Below, in pieces: positions 5,901 to 59,941 of a stretch of DNA of 64,000 nt. The translations under genes and the position numbers were made by a program. The notes under the pieces are model-generated. The model made no database searches, had not been told where the DNA came from, and saw only the letters and a program-made list of their open reading frames with translations. The DNA is from Naegleria gruberi (Eukaryota), in the NCBI GenBank assembly GCA_000004985.1, contig GG738926.1; one strand, written 5' to 3'. Each line of letters begins with the position of its first letter. The first letter of the stretch is position 1.

Positions 5901-8900
5901 ACAATGTCCTACACTGGCTTTGAAGAAGTGCCAATCGTGTTGCTCAATACTGAAAAACAATACTATGGAAACAAACTCACAATTACTGCTTCTTTTATTG
6001 ACCCGATGGTTGAATATTTGTTGAGTAGTAATAGTATTAGTGTTTCATGGTTTTGTTTTAGAGGTACTTCAAAGACTGGTCCTTTTTCTGCCTATGACTG
6101 TACTTCTCAAACTAAGGAATTAATCATTGGAGAATCTAACCTTATTGAAGGATACCATCAATTCCAATTCACAGCCACTTTGACAAATTCAAAAATCACA
6201 TCCGTTACCAAAACAGCAATTGTGCAAGTTGTTAAAACAAATATTCCAGATATTCTCTTTGACTCTGTTCCTCCAGTTTATCCATCATCAAGAAACTTGG
6301 TATTGAATGCAGTTATTTCTTCTTCCACGCAAATCGGTAGCGTTGTGTGGCAAGTAACCAAGGGTAATTTACTCAATGAGAATATTCTTAGTCAATCAAG
6401 TACTCTCTCATTGGATGGATACAATATCAAATCAACTTTGGTTATTGACAAGTCTTATTTATTACAAGGTGATTCTTATACATTCACTGTTACTGCTTCC
6501 AATGGTATTGGCTCTTCAACTGCAGCTGTTTCAACTGTTATTGATGTAGCTCCAAGAATTGCTTGTCAAGCCTATGACGCAGCCATAACCAATTCCGTTA
6601 TCTATGCTTACTCTAGTGATGTGGTAATTGATTGTGCTTCACTCTCTGACTACTCAATTGCTTCCTATCATGTCGATATATATGCCAACTCAACCAGGGT
6701 AATGACAGTATCTAAAACAATGAAAAAGACTTTTATTACAAAGGTACCATACGGTCCAAATGGAAATATCAGACTGGATGTACGAGCTGTAAACAAGATT
6801 GGATCTATTTCATCTGCTTCTATTGATCTCAAGGTTTCTCTTAAAAATACTGATAACACCCTCGCTGGAAGAATTGGATTTGCTAGTTCTGAATATGAAA
6901 GCAACAAAGCAAGCTTTACAAGATTAGAAAGTGTTGTTACTATGCATTCTTTATTGTTACTTATTATTCAACAAAATTCTGTTAGTGAATTTGCCAGTAT
7001 AGACTCTACAGCCAAAACTACTCTCACCACCTTGATAACCAATATGTTAACTACTTTGAGTGGTCTGAAGAGTATTAGTTACAACGCAGATGACAAATTA
7101 GCTCCTGTTTTTATTCCATTTGCAAATGATGCTTACAGGTTACTTGCTGTTATTTCTCCAACTACAGTGGCTTCCAATGCTGATCTACTCACTTGGGTTA
7201 AATTCTTCATAACGTCATTCAATGATTACAAGACATATTATAGATCTACAGTTGTACCTACTATTTACGACTCTAAACACTTGACAGAAATTGATTCCTT
7301 GATAGGTATTGGCGCAAAGTATATTAGTGATAGTAGTTTCAGTCCATTATATAAGGAAACAGCTATTATTTCCAAATTGATTACTGACGTTACCAATTCC
7401 ACAACAACGACAACCTCCACCATCGTGGATTCCAGTGGTACGGAGACAAGATTTGATATTGTTGACAGAATTCAACAACTGAATGCCAAGACAATTACAT
7501 TCGCTAATTATCCTTCAATTTCTATTTCCTTCCCATCAGATTTCTACTCACAACTCGGTGTTGAAAATTCAGGATCAGGAGTAACCCTCACTTCTGCTGT
7601 TTCAACCTCTAAATATTCCCAACTAGTAAGCCCTTCTGTTGATATTTCTCTTTCTACCTCTTCAGACGCTGTTATTTCTGTGAGTGGATTGCAAGGAAAT
7701 TTGATTCAAATCAATTTTGGCACCTTATCACAACCTAAAGCTAACTTTACCAGTTACAATTATACTTGCAGATTCTTGAATACTACCTCATCACAATGGA
7801 GTCAGTCAGGAGTGTCAAGCTCTATTTCCATTTTGTCAGATGATGGCCAAACTGTCACCTTTTCTCTTTCATGTTTAACTTCTCACTTGACTTCTTTCGG
7901 AGTTGTTTCTGCTATCATCCCTCCAACATCACAATCTAAAACAGTAACAACAGATAATACTGGTGTTGTTGTTGGTGCTGTTTTGGGTACACTCTTGCCA
8001 TTGATTTTGATAGCTGTTATTGTTGTCGTAGTGGTGATAATTGTAATTATTTTATACAAGAGAAAGAAATCTCTCGACTCATCACAAGTTCAAAATGTTG
8101 AATTGGTCAATAAGAATGTTTCAAGTGTTCATATTAGTGACTTCCCTTCAGAAGAAAGCACTCACTTTAAGCAATTGGTTAGTGTATCTTCTGGATCTAC
8201 TAATTCTGATCCACTTGCAAGATATGCTGATATGGTAAAGATTGGACAAGGCGCATTCGGAAGTGTGTTCAAAGGTGTTGATACAAAGCAAGCAGGAAAG
8301 TTGAAGGCCATCAAGGTTATTAGATTTAATTCTGTTGGTGAATTGAACAATATGCTCAAAGAAGGAACTATGCTCATGAACATTGATCACCCACATATTC
8401 TAAAAGTCAACGAGTTTATTATTGACAAAGATAACATTCTCTGTATTGACACAGATTTCTGCGAAGATGGTGATTTGACCAAGCTTACTCTTTCTGCAGA
8501 GCCAATCCCAGAACCAATCATCAAACAAGTAATTTATCAAATGTGTTCTGCTTTGGCCTTTATTCACAACAAGCTCAAGATTATTCACAGAGATGTTAAA
8601 CCACACAACATTTTCTTGAAAGAATTGACAGATTTTTCAGTTCAAACAGTTTTGGCTGACTTTGGTCTTGCTAAACAAGATCAAAACAACAGCATGAATT
8701 CATATGCTGGTACACCACTTTGTAAGTTTTTATTTTTAATTATTTAATTAACAACCAATTAAATAGACATGAGTCCAGAACTTGCCCTTGGAGGTAAATA
8801 TAACTATAATACTGACACTTGGTCTCTTGGTGTTGTAGCCTATCAATTAATGACTAAAGATATCACAACTGCTCTAAGTCATTTGTGCTTAACAGGAGAT

Positions 8901-22887: not shown

Positions 22888-25800
22888 ATGAAACTATTAA
22901 ACTTGTTTATTTTTCTAATATTATTTCCCACACTAATTTATTCATCATCCGCAGAGGATACGAGAAATTATTCCAGCTCATCCATTAATAATTCGAATAA
23001 TTTTCCTTCATCCTCTTTGAAAACTAATGTTGTTAACTATTCGAAAGGAATTAATTTACAAATAATTTATTACATTAATTCTGATGATGTCAAATATCAG
23101 AATACAACTTGTCAAGACGAAAGTCATCCATGTTCAGATATGAACCAAGTGATCTTGGCAGCAAATACGAAACTATTCGAAATATTTCATGAAAATGATC
23201 AAACTAAATTAGATTCTTTTACAATGATTGTCATGATTGATTCGAAATTGGAATGTAACAAACTGCTCTTTGATTTTTCAAATTATACGAAACGATTCGA
23301 AATGAGGTGGAAAGGATACGAAAATGGTTTATTCTCTGCTTGTCTAAATAGTTTAGATGAAAATTCCATTTTAGATGCTTTCACTGTTGAGAATGGAAAG
23401 ATTTCAGGCGAATTGAATAATAGATTAGGTATCAAGAATTTGGAAATTCGAAACTGTCACGATGGTGGAATGATTTACTTTTATACTAAAATAGAAAATT
23501 TGCTGATTGCTGACAGTTTCTTTCATGAAGATACTGAAATAACTGAGATTACAAATGTACGAGTGGAAAATACGCAATTGGATGATTTTGAAATTGTTTC
23601 GAATGGAGCAAGTGTTGAAATTTCAAATTCTAAAATTCAAGGAATTGTTGATTTGCAGAATTTTAAATCATTTTCTATTCGAAACTCAATTTGGAAAAAT
23701 AACCGAGTTCATGAGGATTATTCATCAACATTTAATTTAGGACAAGATGTTTCATTTGATAATGTAACAACTAATGCTAAAATTGTGTTTATTTCAATCA
23801 AGTCAATCAAGATGAATGGGCTAATTGTACACAATTATGGAAACGGATATTTCTTGTATCAAATGATACGAGTTTCTCATTTCTATCTAAGCAACAGTTC
23901 GTTTGTGGGAAATTTCGTGCTCAACAACTATTTACTCTCCTTGCAAATAGTTGAATCTATACAAATTGAAAATTGTACAGTTTCTAATAATGTTGGAGGT
24001 TTCATCATGGTAACAGATGCTACTTTGATAATGGGACAGGTGAATATACGAATTAGTAAGAGTGTATTTCAATCCAACGAGATGCTGTCAGATATTGCTC
24101 TAATTGACATTGTGGATCAAACAAGAGAGATGTATTTTATCACAGTTGACCATTGTAAATTTTTGGAAAATACAGGAGAATCCACTTTACACATTGATGG
24201 AGGACTTGCCCAAATTTCCAATTCAGACTTCTACTTTAATATTGCAAACGAACATGGTACTGCATACTTGAATTGCTATGTTACAATTTCAAACTCTAAA
24301 TTCATCGCTAATCAAGCCAAGTTAGGAGGAGCCATTTACATTGGTCCTGCTGGAAATATTGATGCATCTCAAACAATTGATTTTACTTGTGATAATAATT
24401 GGGCAACCTACGCTGGAGGATGCATTTATTCAGAAAATTTGGATTTTTCAAAATTGAAACGCATGAATGGAACTAATATTGCTAAATATTATGGAAATGA
24501 TGTGGCCACACCTATTGTGAGTCTGGATGCTACATTTGATGAGGTAGATTCTAATGGAAATATTGAGGTTTACCCAGGTCAAGCATTCCAAATTAATTTT
24601 TTCCCAAGAGACAAGTTCAATCAGAGCACCTCTTATTTATTGAATCAATATTTGTTTATCAATTCAGAAAAAGGTCATTTTACAATCTCTCAGAATTTTT
24701 TAGATGGAATCCATTCTATTCCAGTAGTTTTGCAAATATTTCCAATTGACGACTACAACCCATCATTGCCACCACTTGTAATATTGATTTCTTCAAAAAT
24801 TGAAATCAAAATTCCTGTAAATATTCTCCCATGTCCAGATAGTTCTTTCCTGAAATTATCTCAAAATGGACATTACTGTGAACAAATTCCATTAGCAGCG
24901 ATTCTGTCATCTGTAATTTTGGGAATTATTTTGATAACCATTATATTGGCAGCATTAATAGTGATAGCTAGGAAATTATTGAAATTGAGAAAACAGGAAC
25001 GTGCTGAAAAGAAAATGGAGCTATTGTTCAAAGATAAGGAATTTATATTCGAAACAGAACAAGCACCTCTATTACTTTCTAATACCATCAACAGTAGTGA
25101 TTCAGGTGAAAGTAGATCAATAATTGGAAACAGGCAACAATACATCATTCCAATTTCTGAAATTAATATTTTGAAAAGAATAGGAGAAGGTGGAATGGGT
25201 GTCGTATATCACGCGAAGTGGAATCGAACTGATGTTGCCATCAAACAATTGAAAACAGATTCCAATGATGAAGAATTCGAAAATGAAGCAATTTTAATGA
25301 GCTCACTTCGACATCCATGTATTGTGAGCTGTTTTGGAGTTTCTCTGACAACCAATGGAAAATATATGATTGTAGAATATTTGGAAAATGGAAGTCTAGA
25401 AAAGGCAATTTATAATTCAAAGATGGGAAGAGCAATTTTGAGATTTGAAACCAAGTTGAAAATATTAACTGATGTTGCCAAAGGATTAGTTTATTTACAT
25501 TCAATCAAACCTCATAGAATTATTCATAGGTATGTTTACTACTTTTATTGGAATAGATATTAATTATGGAATAGAGATTTGAAACCAGGAAATTTATTAC
25601 TCGATAAGAATATGAATGCAAAAGTTGGGGATTTTGGATTGAGCAAAATTGTTTCGAATAATTCTGCAACAATGACAGCAAATGTAGGAACTTTACTTTA
25701 CATGGTAAGTCTAGATAATTTCACAAATTGAATTAAATTGTTATCAATTTAGGCGCCAGTAAGTAATTTCGAAATTTAATTTATTAAAATTTCGAATATT

Positions 25801-26217
25801 TTACAATAGGAATTACTTTCGAATGATCACAAAGGTCAAAGTACAAAAGTGGACGTTTATTCATTTGGAATTATTATGTGGGAAATTTTATTCGAAGAAT
25901 CACCATTTTCAAATGAAATTGATGGTTTCACTAATGTTTTCCAAATATTGAAGAAAGTTACAAAAGGTCATCGACCACCCTTACTATTCGAAACTAGTGC
26001 TTTATTGGAGGCAGATAGAAATCAGAAAGTTGATGAATGGATTGATCATAACTTTACAAAGAAACAAATCGAAACTATTGGAAAGGAAAATATTTCTAAA
26101 TTATATGAATCATATATAGAAATTATGGAACACTGTTGGAATCATGACGCATCTAAAAGACCTGAATTTATTGAAATTACAGATCAATTAGAAACCTTGC
26201 AATCGAACTTTGCTTAA
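22888..26217 (+). CDS. Receptor protein kinase (TKL-like) with a beta-helix-like ectodomain; 4 exons including a 6-nt microexon
   Basis: Exons are 22888..25529, 25575..25704, 25753..25758 and 25810..26217. The introns are 25530..25574 (GTATGT..AG), 25705..25752 and 25759..25809 (both GTAAGT..AG). It has a signal peptide and about 640 aa of NxS/T-rich repeats reminiscent of a parallel beta-helix. The TM helix is [25 protein letters not shown]. The kinase domain reads [21 protein letters not shown]|[21 protein letters not shown]|AP|ELL. Confidence 0.75.
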
Positions 26218-26248
26218 TTTCCTTTTCCAATCTTTTTTCAAAGGTTTA

Positions 26249-26944
26249 TTATTTCTTATTATTATTAATGTCACTAAATTCATAGATTCCATTTCCATAT
26301 TGTGCCATTTCTTGCATGTTAGGTGCAGAACCTGACCCAATTCCAGTAAAATGGAATGCATCTCTAATAGATTTAAAGGCATCAACAGAGCTGATATCCT
26401 GAATATGACCATCACACATAATCAAAATATTTTCAATCTTTGGAAATTTCCTAAAAGTTTGGTTTAGGGCTTGTTTAAGCAAAGTATTACCCAATAATGG
26501 AACTGACCACACATTAAGAAATTGGTTTAGAGCATCCAAATCAGTAGGTTCAATTGTGTCTCCGTGTTTAAACCACTCAGTTGTAGATCCCCATAAGGCA
26601 ATGGAAATTTTTAGATCTCCAGTATTAAACGCCTTGGATTGAACAAAATTATTAAAACAATCAATTAAAGTTTTGAAAGGAGATCCTTTCATTGATACGG
26701 AAGCATCACCCAGAATAACAATCTGGCCCTCTTCAATGATAGATGATCCAGCAAGTTTTGAATTCTTACTGGTTGTCTTGAGAGAGGTATTGATTTTCAA
26801 AGCATCTGCTCTAGTGGTCACTTGAGCTGGTTCAATAATCTTTGAATTCACCTCGATACCAAAAGAAGGTATTTTCCTTTGGAACATTGTGCTTTGAGCG
26901 TTTAATATTGGTTCTGGCATCAGGTTATTATGATTATGATCCAT
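26249..26944 (-). CDS. von Willebrand factor type A (vWA) domain protein, 231 aa
   Basis: Real ATG at 26942-26944. A MIDAS-like motif is present (IVILGDASVSM, i.e. DxSxS) with the downstream hydrophobic beta-strand pattern of a vWA fold. The stop lies 31 bp from the stop of the convergent receptor kinase. Confidence 0.6.
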   Translation of the reverse strand: MDHNHNNLMPEPILNAQSTMFQRKIPSFGIEVNSKIIEPAQVTTRADALKINTSLKTTSKNSKLAGSSIIEEGQIVILGDASVSMKGSPFKTLIDCFNNFVQSKAFNTGDLKISIALWGSTTEWFKHGDTIEPTDLDALNQFLNVWSVPLLGNTLLKQALNQTFRKFPKIENILIMCDGHIQDISSVDAFKSIRDAFHFTGIGSGSAPNMQEMAQYGNGIYEFSDINNNKK

Positions 26945-27011
26945 GGACCTACTACTTACTTTTCAGCATCTTTGTTCTTCTTGTCAATGTCTTCTACGTT
27001 GTTCTTGACAG

Positions 27012-27296
27012 CTACAGTTGCAAAGACATCATCAAGTTGGAGATCTTTGAGCTGTTAGAACCCTCTCCACTTTTAAACTTTTCCTGCATAGCTTTAATGC
27101 TACCTCTTCTTTTTGACAATTCAGTTACTTCCTCTCTTTCCTTGGTAATTGGACTGCTTGAAGTAGAAGCAATCAAAGGAACTTGAAGTAATGATGGCCT
27201 GACTGGAGTCCTCAAATACTTTTGATCAGTTTCATTGCTTGGCTTTTTCTCAAATTGTTGGGAAAGATTTTTAACACTGTTTGTTGTTGGTATCAT
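27012..27296 (-). CDS. Small S/T/K/E-rich ORF (94 aa); could be a separate small gene or an upstream exon of the vWA gene
   Basis: The ORF has a real ATG and a non-random, protein-like composition. I could not find a splice linking it in-frame to 26944. Confidence 0.25.
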   Translation of the reverse strand: MIPTTNSVKNLSQQFEKKPSNETDQKYLRTPVRPSLLQVPLIASTSSSPITKEREEVTELSKRRGSIKAMQEKFKSGEGSNSSKISNLMMSLQL

Positions 27297-28160
27297 GTTA
27301 GAGTTGATTTTTTTTGATCATTATTTTCCATGACAGCAAGTCAAATGAAAGAATTTCAAATAATTATTGTAAACTGATTTTTTAGCAAATTTGCACCAAC
27401 CTACCCTGTTTGATGGAAAAGAGCAACCAATCCCCAAACAGAAATAAATCAAACATGTCTATGCTGACCTTATTTCATAATTTTCTGGAAACTAAAGGCA
27501 AGAAATAGTACTCTAGTACCGATAATAATTCTTTACAATCTTTTACTACAGTTTTCATGTCAAATCACCTGATAAATTTATCAACCATGTTCCATTCCGA
27601 CCAAATTGTAATCCAACATCTCAGTTCTTGAGTGAGTAAAGGAGTTGTTCGCGAAAATTAAATTGATGATGGAAAGCAAGAAAGGATGCTAAATATTCTA
27701 TTATACTATTACGAATATTCTTGTTGTTATTGGCTGATAATTTATTATTAATCTCCATTGAATATTATTCTTGATGATGAATTTAAAATCCAAGGAAGGC
27801 TTCCGAACAACATGTTTTTTCTTGATTGTTGCGCTTTCATTTTCCGTTACAAATTTGCAAATAAAAAATATTTCAAAATTAAAATCACTGATGATGAAGC
27901 CATCAATTATTTCAAATAATACTTGTATCTATTCCGTACAGTAATGATGATGAAACTGGCCAAAACTCTAGAAAGCCAGGAAGATCGGATTTTTTACTGT
28001 TAGCATTCTTCCGAACCTTCCTTTCTCTAAGCCTTCCTTTTTTCAACACCATCACAAAGCCTTGTTATAATAATTTAATAATTTGCAACGTTTATTCATC
28101 ATCAAATTCCTTACTTTCAAAGCCATGAATCTTCATTCAGGCAACAAACCTTCCTCCTTT

Positions 28161-28308
28161 ATCACAACAATTAATCATCAATTCTACAACATATGATCTT
28201 ATATTCAATTGTTCATAGATGAAATAATTGCCCTTCATCACAAAAATTAATCATATCAATTCTACAACTTGTGATCTTATATTAAATTGTTCATAGATGA
28301 AATAATTG
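28161..28308. repeat. Tandem direct repeat, 2 copies of about 70-72 bp (period 76), about 450-600 bp upstream of the pyruvate carboxylase ATG
   Basis: Copy 1 is 28161..28230 (atcacaacaattaatcatcaattctacaacatatgatcttatattcaattgttcatagatgaaataattg). Copy 2 is 28237..28308, about 90% identical, with a 2-nt insertion and a few substitutions. Confidence 0.8.
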
Positions 28309-28769
28309 ATCAGCCTCGGCAAATTAGATTAGTCCCCACCTTCACAATGGCATAAACAATCTCATCATTAGCAACCAACTTTCTATTATGTTGCAAAAGG
28401 GCCTGAAAAAGATCTTGAAAATTCGCGAAAGATTTTCGCTTATTTTTACAATGAACACTCGATTCGGATTTTTGAGGAGAATAACAAGCAAGAAATTGAG
28501 CGAGTACAGAGATAAGCTATTTTGTAAACTCGAGTTGTCTGTATTGGTTGGCGACTTTTAGGATTAATTTGGCCAGTAGGAAGTGTTCACCTACTCTCTC
28601 TCTTTCCACAACTGCAGTTGTTGTTGTGAAAACATTTCACAAACAAAAAAACACAACGAAAACACACTTGTCAATTTGTTGCTGTTGATCAAAGAATTTC
28701 AAATTTTGTAAAATAGGTAAGCTAATTTGAAAAGAGCTTCTTGAGATTTATAATTTGATCAAACTATTT

Positions 28770-31700
28770 ATGAAACCAAACACCAATGTGGATCATTATC
28801 AAAAAAAGGACCACATCAAGTCAATCACAACAAGAATGAAGAAAGTTTGTTTATCCAAGTCAACTTCATCCTCTACCTCTGCCAAACTCAATTTTGCTAT
28901 TCAAAAGCATAAGAAGAATGGTAATTCATCTTCAATCTTTAACAGATCTACTCCAATTTCCTTCTCCAACACTGACTATATTCAACAATTATATCGTCAA
29001 TATGGAACCACAAGAATCTCCTTGAAGGAATTTGAAAAGTTGCTTGTGGCCAACAGAGGTGAAATTGCCACGAGAATTTTACGTTCTGCCCACGAAATTG
29101 GTTGCAGAACTGTTTCGATTTATGCAAAACAAGATGCTTCCTCTGTGCATCGTTACAAAGCAGATGGTAAGTTGTTTTATTTGAATATGTTATTATAATA
29201 ATTGATCGTATTTTGTAATAATATTTGATGAAATAATTGTAAAAATTCCGATCAATAGAAAGTTACTTGATCGGAAAGGACAAGGAATTAGGTCCAGTTG
29301 AAGCTTACTTGAGCATTGATGAGATTATTAAAATTGCCAAGGAGAATGGAGTTGATGCCATTCACCCTGGTTATGGATTTCTTTCAGAGAGAGCTGATTT
29401 TGCACGTGCTTGTTCTGAAAATGGTATTCAATTCATTGGTCCAGTAAGTATTTCATGTGATTGCAATAATATATTTAACAAATTGTTGGTAGACTGCTGA
29501 TGTTGTTGAATCTTTTGGTGACAAGACAAGAGCTAGAAAGGTTGCTACTGATATTGGAATTCCTGTTGTTCCTGGAACTCCAACTGTAAGTATTCTATAC
29601 TTCTTTAATCCTTAATCGATTGTAAATTATTCAAATAACTTATGTTCATTCCTATTTATAATGAACTTGTCCAATTGACCAAAATATTAAGGCAGTAACA
29701 AGTATTGCAGAAGCCAAAACCTTCTGCTCCCAAATTTCCTTCCCAGTCATTTTGAAAGCTGCCATGGGAGGTGGTGGAAGAGGTATGAGAGTTGTTTCCA
29801 AAATGGAAGATTTAGAAGAAGCATTCCAAAGAGCTTCCTCTGAAGCTTTGAATGCTTTTGGTTCTTCAGCAATTTTCATTGAAAAGTTTGTTGAAAAGCC
29901 ACGTCACATTGAGGTTCAAATCTTGGCCGATAAGTTTGGAAATGTTGTTCACTTGTACGAAAGAGATTGTTCAGTGCAAAGAAGACATCAAAAAGTTGTT
30001 GAAATTGCTCCAGCTCCACATTTGAATCCTCAAGTGAGAGAAAAGATTTTGGCTGATGCTGTTCGTCTTGCTCGCCACGTCAAGTATCAAAATGCAGGAA
30101 CATTTGAGTTTTTAGTCGATTCTAATGGAAAGGATTATTACTTTATTGAAGTCAATCCACGTCTTCAAGTCGAACACACTGTTACTGAAGAAATTACAGG
30201 TGTTGACATTGTCCGTTCTCAAATCTTAATTGCCGAAGGAAAGAGTTTGGACGAAATTGGTTTAAAACAAGAAAGCATTTCAGTCAGAGGTTCTGCCATT
30301 CAATGTAGAGTTACCACTGAAGATCCATTGAATGGATTCCAACCAGATACTGGTGTATTGGAAGCTTTCAGAACTGGTGAAGGTATGGGTATTCGTTTGG
30401 ATATTGGTTCTGGTTATGTTGGATCAAAGGTTTGTTTTTTTAACACTTTACAAAATATTTAATTCTTCTCGTTCTTTCACATCAATAGATTACACCATTC
30501 TATGATTCGCTCCTTGTCAAGGTCATTGGTAAAGGTCTCACTCATGAAGAAGCTTCCAACAAATTGAGACGTGCCTTGGCTGAATTCAGAATTCGTGGTG
30601 TCAAACACAATATTCCATTCTTGCAAAAGGTCTTATCTCATGAAAAGTTCTTAAATGGTTATGTTGACACCTCATTCATTGATACTAACCCAGAACTCTT
30701 CCAATTCTCATCCAGTGGTAACAGAGCTCAAAAGCTCTTATCATTCTTGGCTGAAAATGTTGTCAATGGACCAACTACATTACTCGTCACTGATTTGGAA
30801 CCATCCAAGAAGAATCCAACTGTTCCAAAGACACCTACTGGTGCTCCTCCACGTGGCTGGAAACAAGTTCTCGATGAACAAGGTCCTGAAGCATTTGCAA
30901 AGGCCATTCGTGATAGAAGTGAATTGCTCATTACTGACACAACCATGAGAGATGCTCACCAAAGTTTATTGGCAACTCGTGTCAGAACCAGAGATTTAAT
31001 GTCTATTGCTCCATATACTGCTCACGCCATGTCAGATTGTCTTTCATTGGAAATGGGAGGTGGTGCAACCTTTGATGTTTGTTTGAACTTTTTGAGAGAA
31101 TGTCCATTCGAAAGATTGGCTAAGTTGAGAGAAGCCATTCCTAACATTCCATTCCAAATGTTATTCAGAGGTGCAAATGCTGTTGGTTACACTGCTTATC
31201 CAGATAATGTTGTTTACAAATATTGTAAGAAAACAGTTGAACATGGTATGGACATTTTCAGAATCTTTGACTCATTGAACTATGTTCCAAATATGGAGTT
31301 GGGTATTGATGCTGTTGGTAGCGCTGGTGGCGTTATTGAAGCAGCCATTAGTTATACAGGAGATGTCAGTGATCCTAAAAAGTCCAAGTATAATTTGGAA
31401 TATTATTTGAAAGTTGCCAGATCACTTGTTGAAAAGGGAGTTCACATTTTGTGTATCAAAGACATGGCTGGTTTGTTGAGACCTAGTGCAGCAACCTTAT
31501 TGATTGGTGCTTTGAGAAAGGAATTCCCACACATTCCAATTCATCTTCACACTCACGATACTGCAGGAACTGGTGTTGCTACTTTATTGGCAGCTGCTGA
31601 AGCTGGTGCTGATATTGTTGACGCTGCTATTGATAGCATGTCAGGATTGACTAGTCAACCTAGTTTGGGAGCTATTGTTGCTTCATTGAAGAACACTCCA

Positions 31701-32845
31701 TTGGATACTAAATTGGATTTGGGTAAACTCTCCAAAGTTTCTGATTATTGGGAACAAGCCAGAGGATTGTATGCTCCATTCGAATGTACTACTACTTTGC
31801 GTTCTGGTTCTAGTGATGTTTATGTCCATGAAATTCCAGGAGGTCAATATACCAATTTGAATGCTCAAGTTTATTCCATCAATGGTTCACTTGGTAAGTT
31901 TAATTTTTTTACTTTCTAATAGCTAATTATTGTTTTTTTAAATATGAATATAATTTCAGATGGATTCCCTAAGGTTAAGGAATCATATGAAATTGCCAAT
32001 AGATTATTGGGAGATATCATCAAGGTCACACCAAGTAGTAAGGTTGTCGGTGATTTGGCTCAATTCATGGTTCAAAACAACTTGGCTGAAAAGGATGTTA
32101 TTGAAAAGGCCGATCAATTGTCATTCCCTAACTCTGTTCTCGAATATTTTGAAGTAAATTGGGTATTCCATATGGTGGTTTCCCAGAACCTTTGAGAACC
32201 AAGGTTATGAGAGGAAAACCATCCATTGAAGGAAGACCAGGTGCTAGCATGCCAGATTTTGACTTTGTCAAGTTGAAGGACAAGTTGAAGAAGGATTTGG
32301 ATTATGATGCCTCTGAAGAAGATTTGATTTCTTCATCTCTCTTCCCAAAGGTATTTGAGGAATATGTTCAATTCAAACAACAATATGGTGAGGTCACTAA
32401 TTTGGGAACTCGTCAATACTTTAAGGGAATTAAAGTTGGTGAAGAAACTGAAGTTGAATTAGAAAAGGGTAAAGTCTTACATATCAAATTGAAGGCCATT
32501 GGAGAAGTTGGAAGTGATGGTAAGAGAGAAGTTTTCTTTGAAGTAAATGGTCAATCACGTCTTGTTTTGGTTCAAGATAAGAAACTCTCCAAGACTATTC
32601 AAATCAGATCAAAGGCCAATAAGAAGGATCCAAATGAAATTGGAGCACCAATGCCAGGTAAAGTTATTGACATTAAAGTCAAGGAAGGTGATAAGGTCAA
32701 GAAGGGAGATACTTTATTGGTCCAAAGTGCCATGAAGATGGAAACTCAAGTCAAGTGTAACTTTGATGGTATTATCAAATCACTTGGTGTTAAGGTTGGT
32801 GATGAAGTTCAAGGTGGAGATTTGTTATGTATTGTTTCTCAATAA
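28770..32845 (+). CDS. Pyruvate carboxylase (biotin carboxylase + carboxyltransferase + biotinyl domains), 7 coding segments
   Basis: Exons are 28770..29166, 29259..29443, 29493..29585, 29692..30429, 30489..31893 and 31960..about 32153, then a frame-shifted continuation of about 32155..32845. The introns all start GTAAGT, or GTTTGT at 30430. It opens with an N-terminal mitochondrial-type presequence. The motifs are [89 protein letters not shown] and AMKMET (biotin attachment). There is a 1-nt frame discontinuity at 32151..32161 (see findings). Confidence 0.85.
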
Positions 32846-32862
32846 ATTATTATTATCTTTCG

Positions 32863-34275
32863 TTAAAATTGGCTTGACTGGAGCAAATTTGTCTTACATC
32901 GACTTGATATTTCAGAATACATTTCAGAATACCAACTTTCTGGCAGGGCACCTTGGAGAGCCATTTTGTTCATCAGTTCGGTATCATCCAAATATTTCAA
33001 ATTTCCCAATCCAAATAATTGTTCTTTTCGTTGATTGAATTCTTGTTGTGAGAAACGCCACATGAAACCCTTCTCCCTGGCCAAGTTTACAAAGAAATAA
33101 TCGTCAATGAGTGAGGGATGGACATATCTCAGAACTGCAATGTTTTCCTGAACTAATTCTTTGACTAGCTCTAGATTAGTTTGAAGCTCTTCGGAGGCGT
33201 ATTCAATTGAGCGAGGTTGATTTTTGACAGCCTCTGTGAGGATTTCAAAGTTATTGATAATTTTTGGATAGGATTTTAGATATTTCAAAATCAAGCCATT
33301 AATGGAGGCAAATCTTAATATGAGATCAGGAGATCTCTTAACTTTTCTATGAACAAATTCGAATAATCTGATATCCTTTCGAATAACATATTCTATAATA
33401 TCCAAATCCCTTTTAATGAATCCAGGAGCAACTCTGAAAGCTTGAGGATTGACCATTATCAACCTACGCATAAATCTTCCACTATTTCTGAGTTTCTTTG
33501 AAATACTTGGCACTAAACCAGGAGACAACACACAAGCCATGTGTATAATTTCTCTATCTTCTGAAAATTCAGATAAAATAATTTCCAAAAATGTTTTACA
33601 CGACCCAATCAATTGTGTGTAATTTTCCATGATTTTCAGAATGAGATCTCTATTATCCTCAATGAAAAATTCAACAGGTATATATGAAATAGCCTTTGGA
33701 TATTGTCTCAATAGTTCCATTACAATATCTGGATCGAAGGAGAAAGGTTTCGGCAGTGAGAAATAATTAATGGCATCATGGCAGACCAATTGTAAAGCAT
33801 CCAATCTCTTAATGGACTTGTTTTTGAGAGGTTTCACTGTAATGGGACGATCCATAAATATCTTTTCAAGGTTAATTTCATCAGTGATAATTTGAAATTG
33901 TTGAATGGCAGGTGAATTTCTAAACAATTTACTGACAGCTCGCTGGATTTCAGGACTGAGTGCATAATTATATGTAAAATAGTCATGAGTAGTGAAAAAC
34001 TTGGCCAGGAATGTAAAACTCTTCGAATACTCAATTGGAATGTAATCATAATCTCTCGACATGTCCTTCCAAAATTTTCTGGGAAGAGAAAACTTCTCTC
34101 GGAGCCAACTAAATTGTTCCGAATACTTTTCCTGACAAAAATCTATAAGTATAACAACTGTAGAATAATCAGTGTTATTCCCAACCGATGCCGATGAAGA
34201 ATATTTGGTAAATTTGGTCGACGGTTGGAATTCGTTTTTTTCGAGTTGATTTTCTGCTGTTCGCTTTTTGTGCAT
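32863..34275 (-). CDS. Repeat protein with DUF4116-like repeats (about 470 aa)
   Basis: The real ATG is at 34273-34275 (the track ORF starts at an upstream TTG). The recurrent motif ..A(V/I)(K/S)..P..I.Y(A/I)S.EL(Q/R)..(L/R)E(L/I)V..(L/A)V.. (e.g. AVKNQPRSIEYASEELQTNLELVKELVQENIAVLRYVHPSL) resembles DUF4116 repeats. This assignment is from memory of that family. Confidence 0.55.
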   Translation of the reverse strand: MHKKRTAENQLEKNEFQPSTKFTKYSSSASVGNNTDYSTVVILIDFCQEKYSEQFSWLREKFSLPRKFWKDMSRDYDYIPIEYSKSFTFLAKFFTTHDYFTYNYALSPEIQRAVSKLFRNSPAIQQFQIITDEINLEKIFMDRPITVKPLKNKSIKRLDALQLVCHDAINYFSLPKPFSFDPDIVMELLRQYPKAISYIPVEFFIEDNRDLILKIMENYTQLIGSCKTFLEIILSEFSEDREIIHMACVLSPGLVPSISKKLRNSGRFMRRLIMVNPQAFRVAPGFIKRDLDIIEYVIRKDIRLFEFVHRKVKRSPDLILRFASINGLILKYLKSYPKIINNFEILTEAVKNQPRSIEYASEELQTNLELVKELVQENIAVLRYVHPSLIDDYFFVNLAREKGFMWRFSQQEFNQRKEQLFGLGNLKYLDDTELMNKMALQGALPESWYSEMYSEISSRCKTNLLQSSQF

Positions 34276-34444
34276 TTTTTTGGTTTTTTTTGGAATTTTG
34301 TTTTGTTTGAAGGTTTGCAGAAAATTTTGCAAAACTCAAATTGTCAATAATCAAATGAATTAATGAAGAAATAATTGATTTTAAAATCATGGAGTTGTAG
34401 ATATTTGTGTAACTTAAAGATTGAATGCAAAAAATCTTGGTGGT

Positions 34445-36569: not shown

Positions 36570-36631
36570 ACAAGTGAATTTTCTTGTGCAAAACTCTGGT
36601 AATAAAATCTTTGGATGGCTCGCCACGTTTA

Positions 36632-36702
36632 CCGTCTCGGGAGGAATCGAACCTCCGTCAATGGATTCAAAGTCCACTATGCTACCATTACACCACGAGA
36701 CG
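36632..36702 (-). tRNA. tRNA-Gln (anticodon TTG)
   Basis: The reverse complement is CGTCTCG-TG-GTGTAATGGTAGCAT-AGTGGA-CT-TTG-AA-TCCAT-TGAC-GGAGGTTCGATTCCTCC-CGAGACG-G. The 7-bp acceptor stem pairs perfectly, the T-arm GGTTCGATTCC is canonical, and the sequence is close to metazoan tRNA-Gln-TTG. It sits about 60 bp downstream of the preceding gene. Confidence 0.85.
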
Positions 36703-37403
36703 AGCACATTAATTTGAGAACCTTAATGGATATTGAGGAATCAAAACAAAGTTTTCGTTGAATTCAACAACACACACATTGATGAGGGATTGACAGCTTT
36801 ATCGGATATGATGTGGATGGAATGTTGGTTGTACTTTTCCGGTAGAAGGAATTAATTATTCTTGAAGGATATTGTTAATACGGTGGTTGTCGCTTCTTGT
36901 TGAACGTAACTGGAGTGTTTAAATAATGTTGTTTTTCAAAAGATGAATCACACTCATCCACTAATTATTGTTTTGTTACCATCATCATTAAAATTCATCT
37001 CGATGCATTAACGATATTTTTTAAAATATTAAAAAAATCTTCACAATACGTCCACATATTTATTATTAATATCATCTTTGTTGTATCATCATGTAACAGA
37101 TCTACAGAAAAATTAAGGAAGAGGGATTAGAATTTTGAGAGATTCGCTATGGGTCAATCATCATGAACAGAATCTTTTGGCTCATTCGGATTTCCAACAT
37201 CAAGCATCATAGCTTTGCCTCAATAACAATGAAGAAAAGAGAGTACAAAAAAAGAAGTTTAAAGGTCCTTATGCCGCCTAATACCTCCGACTAACTAGGA
37301 AAATTAGAAAATACTAGATTAACTCTTCAAGCAACCTGGAACAATCAATCAAACAACCTAACAAAAAAAAAGATAATCACAGTTGACCTGCTCATCATCT
37401 AGA

Positions 37404-40400
37404 ATGCGAACAATTTTTGTGATATGCATTGCTGTTGTGGCATGGTTTATTCTTCTCTTTCTAACAAGTGAAATCCACTGTCAAACTGTCAAGTATTCAT
37501 TCACTGTTTATCAGAAGGATTTGTCAGGGCCATATTGTGCAGCAAAATCTCCAAATAGTGATGCTGTATACATGTCTGAATATAGTGGACATCGTGTGAA
37601 GAAGAAATCCTATCTAGGTCTTGTTGTTATTGCAGGAACAGGATATGAGGGTTTTAATGGTGACATTTTGGCCAAACAGGCCAAACTGGATAATCCTGGA
37701 GGTGTTCTAGAATATAACAATGAGCTGTATATTATGGACTATGGAAATAATAGAGTGAGAAAGATTAACAGTGAAGGTGTTCTGGTAACAATTGCTGGAA
37801 CTGGTACACGATCTTCAGCAGGTGACAGTAAGTTTTATTTCACACAATTGAATAGACATTCTTTCTTCTTGGCATCATAATCTCACACATTAAAGATGGT
37901 GCAGCTACTTCAGCATCTCTCAATGGACCTTGGGGTATTCATATACCAAGCAATGGAGATATATACATTACAGAATATGTCGGAAATAAGATAAGAAAGA
38001 TTAGTGCATCTGATAATAAGATTTACCTGGGTAAGTGTTTTCAAAGATTATTGTTTATTCATTCCGAAATAATTAGTGGCTGGAACAGGATCATATGATT
38101 TTTCTGGAGATGGTGGCAATGCTGTTAGTGCAAAATTGAAGAGCCCTTGGAGTGTCTTTGTAAATGCAATTGGTGAAATATTTATTGCTGATACGGATAA
38201 TGACAGAATTAGAAAAATTGCAACAAATGGAATTATAACAACTATTGCTGGCTCTGGATCGAGTACTAGTGATGGAGTTCTAGCAACTACAGCTTCTTTG
38301 AAAAAACCAACCTCTGTCTTTATTTCACCAGCAAATGAACTATTCATTGCAGGTATGTGTTTTCACAATTTCATTAATGAATTTTAACATGTCTATTAGA
38401 GGCTGATGGTGGTAGAATCAGAAAGGTCGATCTGTCAACAATGAAAATTTACACAGTTACTAGTTCACTGAATTATCCAACATTTGCATTTGTTGCTGAA
38501 AATAGTGATCTATATATTACAGAGAAAAACAACAACCAAATCAGACTTGGAACAGCTTATTGTGATAGTGGTTATCAAATTAATTCGAATGGAACTATTT
38601 GTAATCCAGTGTGTAATTCACAAATTGGAAGAGCTGGATGCAGTAATCATGGATCATGTACTAGTCCTAATACTTGTACATGTGATACTGGTTATACATT
38701 ATCTGACTGTTCTCAACCTATTTGTTATGGAAAATATGGAAGTACTGCTTGTAGTGGAGCAAATCAAGGAACTTGCTCTGCTCCAGATACTTGTCAATGT
38801 AAGAATGGATTTTCTGGAAGTGATTGTAGTGTTTATTATTGTGGAGGGGTTGTTGCAAGCTCAGCAGGTGTCTGTTCAGGTAAAGGAACATGCTCTGCTC
38901 CAGAAACTTGTTCTTGCCAAACAGATTACGTTGGATCAGTATGTCAATATCCTGTGTGTAACAGCATTCCTTCAAATAACCCAAATGTTTGCAGTGGTGG
39001 TGGTACATGTACTTCTCCAAATTCATGCCAATGCTTTACAAACTATTCAGGAACTCAATGTCAGTACACTACTTGTTCTGGAATAGATAGTACCAATTCG
39101 AATGTGTGCTCTGGTAGAGGAAGTTGTGCAAAATATAATAATTGCACATGCACAGCCAACTTCTTTGGCTCAAATTGTGAGCTCACTCAATGTTATGGAA
39201 TTATTTCAAATTCAGCTTCCACATGCGCTTCACATGGTAGATGTGATGGCTACAATAAGTGTACATGTGATTCTAATTATTTTGGATTGGACTGTAGTGT
39301 AACAAGTTGTTATGGAGTGTGGAGTAATACTTCTAGTGTTTGTACTGCACCAAACAGAGGTACTTGCAATTCCTACAATAATTGTACCTGTACAAACTCG
39401 TATTATGGAACTCAATGTCAAGATTATGATTGCTTTGGAATTAACAAATCTAATAGCTCAGTATGTTCTGGTAAAGGAGCATGTTCTGCACCAAATACTT
39501 GTTTGTGCTCTGATTCTAATTACTCTGGTTCTAATTGTGATGCAGCTGTGTGTTATGGAATTTCAGCAAATGACTCTAGAGTTTGTTCTGGATCAAGAGG
39601 TGCCTGTAACTCTCCAAACACTTGCTCATGTTTTTCAAATTATTTTGGACCTCAATGTCAATATACACAATGTTATGGTATTGACAGTTCCAACACAACT
39701 CATGTTTGTTCTGGTAGAGGTACTTGTTCTGATTTCAATAAGTGTGTTTGTAAAGATGGATACTATGGATCCAATTGTCAACTCAGCAAGTGTTTTGGAG
39801 TTTTATCAAATAGCTCAAATGTTTGCTCAGGTCACGGAACTTGTTCGGATACAGATACTTGTAATTGTGATTCTAATTATTCAGGTAAAAATTGTGATAT
39901 TACATCATGTTATGGAACCTCAAGTACAAATCCACTGGCATGTTCATCTCATGGCTTTTGCTCGTCCTATAATAATTGCACCTGTTCATCAAACTATTAC
40001 AGCCAACAATGTCAAGAGTTCAATTGTTTTGGTGTGAATAAGGCATCTACAAGTGTATGTTCTGGTCATGGTACTTGTTCAGATATTGATACATGCTCCT
40101 GTACAGGAAACTGGATTGGAGGAAATTGTAATCTCACAACCTGTAATGGTGTTTGGAATTATAATTCATCTGTTTGTTCTGGAAACGGTGTTTGCTCATC
40201 TCTGAATAATTGTACATGTAATGTAGGATATTATGGTGCTAATTGTGATTCCTTTGATTGTTTTGGATCTGTATTTACAAACGAAGGTATTTGTGCAAAC
40301 AATGGTTCTTGTACAGGTCCTGGTGTTTGTTCCTGTATTGATGGATATTCTGGATCTCGCTGCCAATATCCTATTTGTTATGGCATTAGTGGTGGTAGCT

Positions 40401-43400
40401 CAAGTGTCTGTTCTGGAAATGGACAATGTATTGATAGGAATATATGTTCGTGCAGTGCTGGATGGACTGAAAACACTTGTAATGTGACAACATGTTCTGG
40501 TAAAAGAAGTGATAATTCATTAGTTTGCAGCTCTCAAGGTTCATGTGTGGGACCAGATAATTGTTATTGTAACAAAGGTTACACTGGACCTAATTGTGAA
40601 TTTAATGTCTGTTATGGAAAGAGTCAGAATGATTCTTCAGTTTGTTTAGGCAGAGGTAAATGTTTGAAACCAGGCGAATGTACTTGTAATACTGGATTTA
40701 GAGGTACAGAATGTCAATATTATCAAATTGATTTTGATGAGAAATTGGCCACTCTCAAGCCAACCCTAACTTCAGTTCTACAATATTCATACCTTTTCAA
40801 TGGAACATGTGAAACCTTATTCGAAAGTAGTGATTTACCAATAATTGGTGAATCTCCAATATGTTTATGGGATAGTAGCAAGATGATTATTTATTTAGGT
40901 TTTGGAACTCATCTTCAAACTGGCAATTTACTAAGAGTGAAGAATAGCAACTTAGCATTCTTTGTTGATACAAGCAACTCTCTTTCCTATACTGGATCTG
41001 GTATTACGCTCAAGAAATTGATGACAAATGTTCCAACAAGTAATCCTTTACCTCTTAGACCTATTGTTGATAGCAATTTCCAATCCTACACCAATTTCTC
41101 AAGTTTAGTTTGGTCATGTATTAGTTGTTCTACAAGTTTGAATGATTACTTGAAATCTCAACAACGTGAATATCTCTACATTCCTCCATCCTACTTGAAA
41201 TCTCTATCAGCATTATATCTGCAATTAGCAGTCTCAAATTTTGCTTCTAATTCCAAAGTTGCAAGTCTTTCATTTACGTTTTCTCAATCAGCTGCTCCTA
41301 ATCTTGATTTAATTACTGACCTGAATAGTGATTCACAAATTTCTTGCACAGGATATGACTGTATTATAGAAACAGAACCAATTGGTTATGGAAACAATGC
41401 AGGATTATTCTTAGGTTCATACCCATCAATCAAATACAATGTCTACCTGTCCAGATTTTTCTACACAGACAGCAGTGGCATTTTGGGAAGTGGATCTACT
41501 ACTGGAAGTGTCTTGCTATTGGCCAAACATACACAATCCACAACTTCAAAAGATTTCTTCATTCAATATTCATTCAATGCCTATGAAAATAAGCTTCCTG
41601 TTGTTATTTCAGCAACAAATCCTGTCTTTTCTCCTTCATCTTTCATTAGATTTAAGGCAACAATCTTCAATCCAATGGTATTCGTGAAAACCGTTCAAGA
41701 TACATATTATCTTTGGAAACTCTTCAAATTTGACGAAACAGGAAAAGCTAAACAAATGAGCACTGAAATTTACATTGATCTGAATTATGATGAAGTAGTT
41801 GTACAGAGAGAATTGGAGGCAGGTACATATTTAGTGAGTCTTAATGCAGTAGCTGCTTATGGATCTACTCTCATGAATACTACCTTTACTGTATTGAACA
41901 CAACAGATAGATTGGCTTCCATCAGTTTTTCTCCTGTGCCAACAATAGTTTCAATTTCAGAAGATTTGACAATTACTGCAACAATTAATGGAACCATAAC
42001 ATCATTTGAATGGATTCAAATTTCTGGAAGGATAAAACCATTGTGCTCTTTGCAAAAAGTAACAACACAACCAAGTGAAAATATTACACAAAGCGAATTG
42101 ACTATAACCAGAGATTGTCTTTTTGAAGGTGAAATTTATATATTCAAGGTTGTTGCTAACAATTCAAATGGCATTTCGTCTTCAGCTGAAATTCAAACTC
42201 AAACAGATATCTCACCAAGTATTCATTGTGATTTTTATTCTACATCTGAAGATGGCTCTTTCGTTGCATTGGACAGCACCTTGCTAATGACATGTAGAAA
42301 TGGAGCTAAGGATACTATCAAATCTTACACAGTTGAAATTCATTATAATGGAGAAAGAAAGTTTATTGTTTCCAATACTCAAAAGAGAAACCTCTATTTT
42401 AGAATGCCTTATCTAATTGAAGGAAGCCAATTGGTTGTCAGAGGTCTCAATTTTTATAATACTGAAGTCATTTACAGAAAGAATTTAACATCAACTCTGA
42501 CTTCTACTGACAAGGTTCAACTCTTTATTGATGGTTATAATAGTATTACAACTAGTGAAACAACAAGTTATTTTGGAGCTATTAATTCTTTAAATTCTCT
42601 CTTGACATTATTTGAATACCAACAATTTGATTCGCTTGAAAATAAGAACTCTCTCCAAACTACTTTGAAATCCATGCTCAGCCTAATCTCTAATCTGAGA
42701 GCTACTGGTGTCAATGTTGATGACAAACTCACTGCTCTCTTACTTCCTCCAGTGTATAGAATTCACAAATACTTGGATAGTATTAATGGAACTAGATCAA
42801 GTGATGATTGGAGAGTTGATGATCTCCTTTCTTGGACATCTTACTTTACTGAGTCTATTCTCAACACCCTTCAATACTATTACTCAACTCAATGGAAATT
42901 CCTTATTGATCAAATTCATTTGAATGAATTGGATGAACTTATCGAACTTGGATCGAGTATGAATTCTGAAAAATTTGTTCTCGTTCAAGTTCAATATGAA
43001 TTATTAACAGATAGCTTGAATGGAGTCGCATCTAAGAAATCACAAACACAGCTCTCTAATGGTATCTTGCTAAGAGAAAAATTGGACTCTGTCGATTCAT
43101 TGAGAAGTCACATTATTAACTTGTACTATTCCAACACTAATGTTTCGATTCAATTCCCATCTGATGTTGCTGATACTTTAGCTTTTGGAGATACAACCAC
43201 AGATAATTCACTCAATTCATTTGTTAAAGTTTCCAAGACTACAAACTCAAAGATTATTGGTGTCATGACAAGTGTCAATATTCAAACTCAAAAATTCAAA
43301 GAATTGGAAATCCAAAACCTTACCACCTCCATCAATATTGCATTCACAGGCTCTCAATATCCTTCCTCCAATGTAACTTGCAAATATTACAATTCCTCAT

Positions 43401-44760
43401 CTCAAGAATGGCTCACTAATGGTGTTCAAACTTTGATTTCTTCTTCCAATAATTTGGTTACCATTTCTTGCTTGACAAATCACCTTACAACATTTGCAGT
43501 TTTCAAGAATGATATTATTTACATTCCACCTACAAATTCTACTACTAATGGCGTACAAACTTCTGATCCAGCTCTTGCAATTGCTCTTGGAATTATTCTT
43601 CCACTTTTGGCAATTGCAATAATTATTGTAATAATTATCATTGTTGTGATTCTGGTATTGAGATATAGAAAGAAGAAACTTTCCTCTGAAGTTTCCAATA
43701 CTTCAGCCATTGAACTGAGAAATGAAAATAAGAGAGGATTATTCGATACTGACATTTCAGACTTCCCTTCAGAAGCAAGTGTCTATTTCAAACATTTGAA
43801 TTCTTCCTCAATGGCTTCAACTGTTTCTTCCACATCTTCTTCTAATGATCCATTCTCTCGTTACAAGGACATGGTTAAAATTGGAGAAGGTGCTTTTGGT
43901 TCAGTCTTTAAAGTTATTGACACTAAAAATAACAATAAGGTGAAAGCCATCAAAGTTATTCGATACAAATCAGTGGAAGAATTAAACTCCATGATGAAAG
44001 AAGGAACTCAATTAATGAACATTAGCCATCCAAACATTCTCAAAGTGAATGATTTCTTTGTGGAAAAGGACAATTTACTATGTATTGACATGGATTTCTA
44101 TCCACAAGGTGATTTGAGTACCTTAATCAACCAACAGGAAGATTGTAAAGAAGTACACATCAAGCAAATTATTTATCAAATGTGTCATGCTTTGCATTTC
44201 ATTCACAATGATTTGAAATTAATTCACAGGTAAGTTTTTTAAGTTTTTTTATGGAATTTCAACAACAAATTCAATTCACAGAGATGTCAAACCTTCAAAT
44301 ATTTTCATCAAGGTATTAAACGGAAATGTCATCCATACAGTATTGGCAGACTTTGGTTTAGCAAAGGATAATAAGAATTCAGCAAGTATGAGCTTTGCTG
44401 GTACTCCACTCTGTAAGTATTTTCATAACTGTCAAAATTCATAAACATCAAATAGACATGAGCCCAGAATTGGCATTAGGAGGTAAATATTATGCCAACA
44501 CAGATGAATACTCTCTCGGAGTGACTGTCTATCAATTAATTACCAAAGACACCATGACTGCCATCAGTCACTTGTACATGTCAAAAGACGCAAAAGAAGT
44601 ACAAACTCTTACACGAAAACGTTTGAAGGAGAGTGGTGATTATTCTGATAGATTAATCGATATCTGTCTACAAATGTTGGAAAAGGATAACTGTGCACGT
44701 CCATACGCTCAAGATATTTTGGAAAATTCATACTTTAATGATATTAGAAAGATTAGATAA
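37404..44760 (+). CDS. Receptor Ser/Thr protein kinase with an NHL-repeat + about 18 tenascin-type EGF-repeat ectodomain (paralog of 2951..9125), 6 exons
   Basis: Exons are 37404..37827, 37896..38030, 38077..38352, 38400..44229, 44282..44412 and 44456..44760. The introns start GTAAGT, GTAAGT, GTATGT, GTAAGT, GTAAGT. It has a signal peptide (MRTIFVICIAVVAWFILLFLTSEIHC) and NHL repeats (YIMDYGNNRVRKINSEGV, YITEYVGNKIRKISAS, FIADTDNDRIRKIATNG). About 18 EGF repeats, a long S/T-rich ectodomain, a TM helix (LAIALGIILPLLAIAIIIVIIIIVVILVL) and a kinase domain (IGEGAFGSV, AIKVI, IHR|DVKPSN, DFGLAK, GTPL-Y-MSPE) follow. Confidence 0.8.
38600..40715. repeat. Tandem array of about 18 tenascin-type EGF repeat units (period about 93-105 nt) within the second receptor kinase
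   Basis: The reiterated motif is C(Y/F)G..S.N.S.VCSG.G.C.....C.C...Y.G..C. The spurious His/Val/Leu-rich ORFs in the track (38484..39086, 39312..40037 and others) are alternate-frame products of this repeat. Confidence 0.75.
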
Positions 44761-49916: not shown

Positions 49917-49990
49917 AGCCCGTCTAGCTCAGTCGGTAGAGCGCAAGGCTCTTAACCTTGTGGTCGTGGGTTCGACCCCCACGGTGGGCG
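49917..49990 (+). tRNA. tRNA-Lys (anticodon CTT); as I read it, 1 nt longer than the two minus-strand copies
   Basis: The body GCTCAGTCGGTAGAGC-G-CAAGG-CTCTTAA-CCTTG-TGGTC-GTGGGTTCGACCCCCAC-GGTGGGC-G is identical to the copies at 57051 and 59869. As printed, the 5' end is GCCCCGTC versus GCCCGTC in the other copies. Downstream T-runs (TTTTTT) look like a Pol III terminator. Confidence 0.8.
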
Positions 49991-50975: not shown

Positions 50976-51048
50976 GCTGGCGTAGCTCAGTCGGTAGAGC
51001 GTTGGTCTAATAAGCCATTGGTCGCCGGTTCGATCCCGTCCGTCAGCA
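50976..51048 (+). tRNA. tRNA-Ile (anticodon AAT)
   Basis: The sequence is GCTGGCG-TA-GCTCAGTCGGTAGAGC-G-TTGGT-CTAATAA-GCCAT-TGGTC-GCCGGTTCGATCCCGTC-CGTCAGC-A. The acceptor stem pairs (one G-U), the GCTAATAA anticodon loop is as in eukaryotic tRNA-Ile-AAT, and there is one mismatch each in the anticodon and T stems. A T-run follows. Confidence 0.75.
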
Positions 51049-57050: not shown

Positions 57051-57123
57051 CGCCCACCGTGGGGGTCGAACCCACGACCACAAGGTTAAGAGCCTTGCGC
57101 TCTACCGACTGAGCTAGACGGGC
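57051..57123 (-). tRNA. tRNA-Lys (anticodon CTT)
   Basis: The reverse complement is GCCCGTC-TA-GCTCAGTCGGTAGAGC-G-CAAGG-CTCTTAA-CCTTG-TGGTC-GTGGGTTCGACCCCCAC-GGTGGGC-G, 73 nt with a canonical cloverleaf. Plus-strand A-runs upstream act as its T-run terminator. Confidence 0.85.
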
Positions 57124-59868: not shown

Positions 59869-59941
59869 CGCCCACTGTGGGGGTCGAACCCACGACCACA
59901 AGGTTAAGAGCCTTGCGCTCTACCGACTGAGCTAGACGGGC
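59869..59941 (-). tRNA. tRNA-Lys (anticodon CTT)
   Basis: It is identical to the 57051 copy except for one acceptor-stem substitution (G67->A), which changes a U-G pair to U-A. It is 73 nt. Confidence 0.85.

Follow-up and report, generated by a model that had tools for sequence, protein, structure and literature searches.

A spacer upstream of the pyruvate carboxylase (PC) gene of Naegleria gruberi contains a genuine head-to-tail duplication at positions 28156-28308 of the window, by which we mean the whole 64-kb stretch of DNA that was analysed; the similarity of the two copies is far beyond chance. This array is probably a locus-specific minisatellite of two copies. It belongs to a thoroughly known kind of feature, an ordinary minisatellite that varies between strains, and there is no indication of function. 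Its significance is slight; because its presence or absence varies between strains of the N. gruberi complex, it can serve as a convenient strain marker.

Structure and setting of the array

Tandem Repeats Finder (TRF) describes the array as 2.0 copies of period 78, with 90% matches, 2% indels and a score of 255. This is the top score among the 62 TRF rows for the window, and no other array in the window has a period greater than 42. Pairwise alignment of the two copies revealed 5 substitutions and a single 2-nt indel (ATC--ATC versus ATCATATC), and comparison of one copy with the other by blastn gave 90.9% identity over 77 columns (E = 1e-21). Three 23-29 nt sub-patterns of the unit had 0 matches in 100 dinucleotide-preserving shuffles. 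Thus, the tandem duplication described in a previous sequence-only reading of this DNA is real, and its estimates of ca. 90% identity and of a few substitutions with a 2-nt indel were accurate. Two of its measurements needed correction: the unit, given as about 72 bp, is 76-78 nt long, and the array, said to begin at 28161, begins at 28156 according to both TRF and the alignment. TRF also reported an internal 40-nt sub-period (57% matches, score 80), which we set aside as too weak in AT-rich DNA. The array and its surroundings comprise the following features.

26249-26944, minus strand: VWA_3-domain gene, the upstream neighbour (PF13768, E = 6e-41)
28068-28084, no strand assigned: (TAATAATT) microsatellite, 2.1 copies (3.1 copies at 3701-3725 of contig L001, described below)
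28150-28155, no strand assigned: six extra pyrimidine-rich bases 5' of copy 1, within the stretch absent from L001 (~28150-28231)
28156-28231, no strand assigned: copy 1, 76 nt (TRF, pairwise alignment, repeat finder and blastn)
28232-28308, no strand assigned: copy 2, 77 nt (TRF and pairwise alignment)
28770-32845, plus strand: PC gene with several short introns (protein similarity, and Pfam on the orthologous contig)
28770-29159, 29267 onward, 29752-30462, 30564-31919 and 32159-32845, plus strand: PC exon open reading frames (ORFs)

Because the VWA-domain gene is on the minus strand and PC is on the plus strand, the repeat lies in a divergent intergenic spacer. The first in-frame ATG of PC is at 28770, so that the array starts 614 nt and ends 462 nt upstream of the coding start, in agreement with the 450-600 bp given by the earlier reading. 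The same reading placed the array in a gene-free interval of 1.5 kb. That figure stands (1473 nt) if the 94-amino acid ORF at 27012-27296 on the minus strand is real; otherwise, the interval extends to ca. 1.8 kb (26945-28769). The ORF has no Pfam match and is missing from the close relative L001.

The PC exons share 63-67% identity with proteins named pyruvate carboxylase, and the corresponding exon ORFs of the orthologous contig contain the Pfam domains Biotin_carb_N, CPSase_L_D2, Biotin_carb_C and HMGL-like, which together establish the downstream gene as the genuine pyruvate carboxylase it had been called. Among named PCs, those of metazoans (62-63%) and myxobacteria (62%) are the nearest. 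The best matches include no annotated N. gruberi protein from NCBI or UniProt, and the sole 100% match is a metagenome ORF; the PC gene model may be absent from, or fragmented in, the public annotation. A DUF4116-repeat gene (32863-34332, minus strand) converges on PC, its ORF ending 18 nt past the PC stop codon.

A coding repeat was ruled out, as no ORF of at least 50 amino acids covers the repeat across 27945-28387. A structured non-coding RNA gene was also rejected: at the gathering threshold, Rfam identified five tRNAs alone in the window, all of them away from the repeat, and the predicted folds of both copies on both strands were no better than those of shuffled sequences (z from -1.49 to +0.96). 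We also considered a C/D-box snoRNA, given the TGATGATGA motifs upstream; by eye, no D box (CTGA) follows them, and Rfam is silent here as well.

The window as a whole is AT-rich (ca. 34% GC) and densely packed with genes; long single-exon ORFs are numerous, and there are some short introns. Its genes encode EGF-repeat receptor kinases, a Cache-cyclase fragment, and DUF4116 and BTB proteins, a gene content that is typical of Naegleria and agrees with the assignment of this DNA to N. gruberi. At 58339-59757, a ferric-reductase ORF matches an NCBI 'predicted protein [Naegleria gruberi]' with 100% identity; its N. gruberi paralogues are 72-76% identical, and the next named match, from Willaertia magna, is 43% identical. 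The five tRNA genes lie within 23 kb (36631-36703, 49918-49990, 50976-51048, 57051-57123 and 59869-59941) and comprise three tRNA-Lys(CTT), a tRNA-Ile(AAT) and a tRNA-Gln(TTG). Three large single-exon ORFs are receptor-kinase-like (3771-8747, 38441-44233 and 22888-25563), two of which have teneurin-type EGF repeats upstream of the kinase domain. Since these ORFs end inside the kinase profile, introns seem to interrupt their kinase domains.

Copy number in related strains and the age of the duplication

A search with PC identified L001, an ENA metagenome contig of 7886 nt (ERZ929261) that is collinear with window positions 24216-32346. Substitutions between the two, counted outside gaps, amount to 1.3% in the kinase and VWA ORFs, 1.6% in PC and ca. 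2.8% in the aligned spacer; thus, the strain behind L001 is N. gruberi-like and very close. Substitutions are locally concentrated at 29500-29699 (17 in 200 nt, versus 1-4 elsewhere in PC), an interval that falls between the exon ORFs ending at 29500 and starting at 29752 and so presumably corresponds to an intron.

At the orthologous position, L001 carries a single copy of the unit, and TRF detected no tandem array of the unit in this contig. Copy number at the locus therefore differs between close relatives, with two copies in the window and one in L001. The stretch absent from L001 is 82 nt long (~28150-28231), which equals one unit plus a few junction bases, and no remnant of copy 1 was seen there. 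The extra bases at 28150-28155 either are filler or were added when a small slippage event later occurred at the left junction. The single copy in L001 has the copy-2 state at all 5 substitution sites and at the 2-nt indel; because it carries this state throughout, all of the differences between the two copies can be assigned to changes in copy 1. Further changes are private to the L001 copy and lie at sites where both window copies agree: a deletion of 10 nt, an insertion of 2 nt and two substitutions side by side. Thus, the unit changes no more slowly than the flanking spacer, and neither its sequence nor its copy number is conserved above the neutral background.

The spacer is structurally unstable between the two strains. 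In addition to the missing copy, comparison with L001 revealed at least five other large indels. Segments found only in the window span 26955-27497 (543 nt, including the 94-amino acid ORF mentioned above), 27520-27602 (83 nt) and 27641-27712 (72 nt), and a 31-nt spacer segment is found only in L001. None of the strain-specific segments in the region compared (window 26868-27712 versus L001 2711-3318) has a second copy in the window. L001 also has a 399-nt in-frame insertion in the VWA gene, which is flanked by a 5-nt direct repeat (GGTAT) and adds 133 amino acids. The difference in the (TAATAATT) microsatellite, at 2.1 versus 3.1 copies, demonstrates copy-number change of the slippage type within the same spacer.

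The search for further alleles using PC exon 1 recovered only L001 and a more distant Naegleria species, represented by contigs L004 and L005, whose PC exons share 78-82% nucleotide identity with the window. The genes upstream of PC differ in this species (CAP and RCC1-like). L004 and L005 have no similarity to either the unit or the spacer, and no tandem repeat occurs at the place corresponding to the array. A tandem repeat of 3.8 copies of a 42-nt unit (75% matches) is present ca. 2 kb upstream of PC at L004 4443-4600; it lies in or beside small called ORFs and is unrelated in sequence to the 76-78-nt unit. The array is conserved neither in the close relative nor in the more distant species, which suggests that it evolves neutrally, with no sign of constraint and nothing that points to a need for two copies.

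To place the duplication in time, we compared the divergence of the copies with that of the strains. Of 75 aligned positions, 5 (6.7%) differ between the copies, versus 1.3-2.8% between strains. The binomial probability of this count is 0.056 given the non-coding rate of 0.028 and 0.007 given the overall rate of 0.016, and the probability that all of the changes fall in copy 1 is ca. 0.06. These timing statistics are marginal. Judged by divergence and polarity, the duplication probably predates the split between the two strains, with copy 1 being deleted later in the L001 lineage, and the description of the duplication as 'not very recent' in the sequence-only reading is reasonable and probably right. 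A recent duplication in the lineage of the sequenced strain, after its split from L001 and followed by unusually fast change in copy 1, strikes us as unlikely. It would make the single copy in L001 the ancestral state, and the lack of a visible copy 1 remnant in that contig would fit. However, the time available allows non-coding DNA to change by at most ca. 1.4% per lineage, against which stand 5 substitutions and 2 indels, and a gain after the split needs all of these changes to fall in copy 1 and none in copy 2. An origin before the split is thus the more economical account.

Taken together, these observations suggest how the two-copy minisatellite would have arisen. A 76-78-nt non-coding stretch between the VWA gene and PC would have been duplicated head to tail, likely by replication slippage or unequal exchange. 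The copies would then have diverged to ca. 90% identity, the duplication itself probably preceding the strain split and copy 1 probably being deleted on the L001 side. If the array affects PC transcription at all, it would do so as a by-product of having doubled any weak binding sites that the unit may hold.

Searches for further copies

If the unit belonged to a dispersed repeat family, or were a miniature inverted-repeat element (MITE) that by chance lies twice side by side here, copies at other loci would be the natural expectation. No other copy was found in the 64-kb window: the three 23-29 nt sub-patterns, allowing up to 3 mismatches, match the two copies alone, and blastn-short against the window returned the two copies and chance matches of 10-13 nt. 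Within 31 kb of related contigs (L001, L004 and L005), there is nothing beyond the single copy in L001, and the unit has 0 matches in viral and prokaryote collections. A scan of JGI metagenomes with a 22-mer of the unit retrieved two contigs, L006 and L007, which share 28 of 29 nt with the unit (758-786 and 2505-2533, respectively) within dissimilar flanks. These contigs are unrelated AT-rich sequence (28-29% GC) and are identical to each other over the stretch read. Since their flanks have no similarity to the locus and the database is very large, we regard this match as due to chance.

One feature does recall a MITE, namely an imperfect inverted pair, CAATTAATCATC ... GATGAAATAATTG, that appears in the predicted fold of copy 1. 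Nevertheless, the hairpin is not significant when compared with shuffled sequences (z = -1.5 for copy 1 and +0.7 for copy 2). Terminal inverted repeats are unconvincing, the best pair being 20 nt at 70% identity and spanning both copies, and no target-site duplication or flanking direct repeat is visible in the sequence around the array. The exactly one copy at the same position in L001 is also what gain or loss of a tandem unit predicts. The transposable element content of N. gruberi is reported to be 0.28% (bioRxiv 10.64898/2026.06.24.734286), which makes a dispersed-repeat origin unlikely a priori. The dispersed copies that would have contradicted the sequence-only reading did not appear in any of the DNA searched. 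In view of these results, which cover the 64-kb window, 31 kb of related contigs and the sequence collections, we consider origin from a dispersed family very unlikely.

An assembly artefact, in which the array would stem from two haplotypes of a heterozygous strain placed end to end, deserves mention solely because the sequenced strain is reported to be heterozygous. Such artefacts are usually kilobase-sized and located at contig ends, whereas the array is 153 nt long, shorter than a single sequencing read, and has unique flanks on both sides. The 10% divergence of the copies also far exceeds that seen at the strain level. We therefore view an artefact as extremely improbable.

Regulatory reading and comparison with known systems

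The sequence-only reading had likened the array to a multimerised enhancer or upstream activating sequence (UAS). Stated fully, the unit would be a cis-regulatory module of PC or of the VWA gene, and doubling its transcription factor sites would raise or alter expression. Its position in a divergent spacer, a few hundred nucleotides before the PC coding sequence begins, is compatible with such a role, as is the distribution of an 11-mer, TGAAATAATTG, that ends each unit and occurs at the following sites.

28220-28230 and 28298-28308: 3' ends of the units, one per repeat copy
27904-27914, minus strand: extra copy, in inverted orientation
29229-29239, plus strand: extra copy in PC intron 1, within the 13-mer GATGAAATAATTG (29227-29239)

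The 11-mer occurs 4 times in the 64-kb window versus 0.36 expected, and all of the occurrences fall within 27904-29239, a 1.3-kb region around the 5' end of PC. The 13-mer that ends the unit recurs exactly in PC intron 1. Allowing up to 2 mismatches, the 11-mer has 21 matches in the window versus 8.7 expected, with 5 in the 1.3 kb around the PC 5' end. Moreover, two CANNTG palindromes, CATATG at 28190-28195 and CAATTG at 28206-28211, arise from 3 of the 5 derived substitutions in copy 1; they are 16 nt apart start to start and are both missing from copy 2 and from L001.

The two further occurrences of the unit-end motif within this 1.3 kb are a counterpoint to a purely neutral minisatellite, and the recurring motif could mark a real binding site. 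Because it was picked post hoc from an AT-rich repeat unit, however, the motif is at most a hint of one. The motif sites are shared by L001, an uninformative result at such low divergence, and the motif is absent from the locus of the more distant species. Several observations speak against regulatory multimerisation. Copy number differs between strains that are 1.3-2.8% diverged, and the unit in L001 has acquired indels of its own; the surrounding spacer is full of large strain indels; and the other Naegleria species lacks similarity upstream of PC altogether. In the literature searched, no cis-regulatory element, enhancer or UAS has been described for Naegleria. On balance, regulatory multimerisation seems rather improbable to us. 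More doubtful still is its specific form, in which the unit would act as a cis-regulatory module through a Naegleria transcription factor that binds its terminal GATGAAATAATTG site, of which there are four around the 5' end of PC.

To our knowledge, Naegleria promoters are essentially uncharacterised. If the regulatory reading were true, strains with one and two copies would differ naturally in how expression of an anaplerotic enzyme is regulated, and the array would offer a first handle on promoter architecture in Heterolobosea. Likewise, if the recurrent motif were a real binding site, it would be among the first cis-elements proposed for Naegleria, a claim for which the present evidence is insufficient.

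We compared the array with three known systems. In common with MITEs and other dispersed short repeats, it is short, AT-rich and non-coding, with a weak inverted repeat inside one copy, but it is tandem, known from a single locus in the DNA searched, and devoid of clear terminal inverted repeats or a target-site duplication. The 72-bp repeats of SV40 and the multimerised UAS of yeast provide a closer formal parallel, in that two direct repeats of ca. 70-80 nt lie a few hundred bases upstream of a gene; unlike them, the Naegleria array shows no sign of conservation, and a close relative of the strain that bears it manages with one copy. Minisatellites, or variable number tandem repeats, differ from the array in that it has two copies only, already 10% diverged, and for this reason it is now a poor substrate for further slippage. 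In other respects it is like them: it is head to tail, non-coding and of a period of tens of bases, it has no copies elsewhere in the DNA searched (the 64-kb window, 31 kb from relatives and the sequence collections), and its copy number varies among close relatives, with a varying microsatellite nearby.
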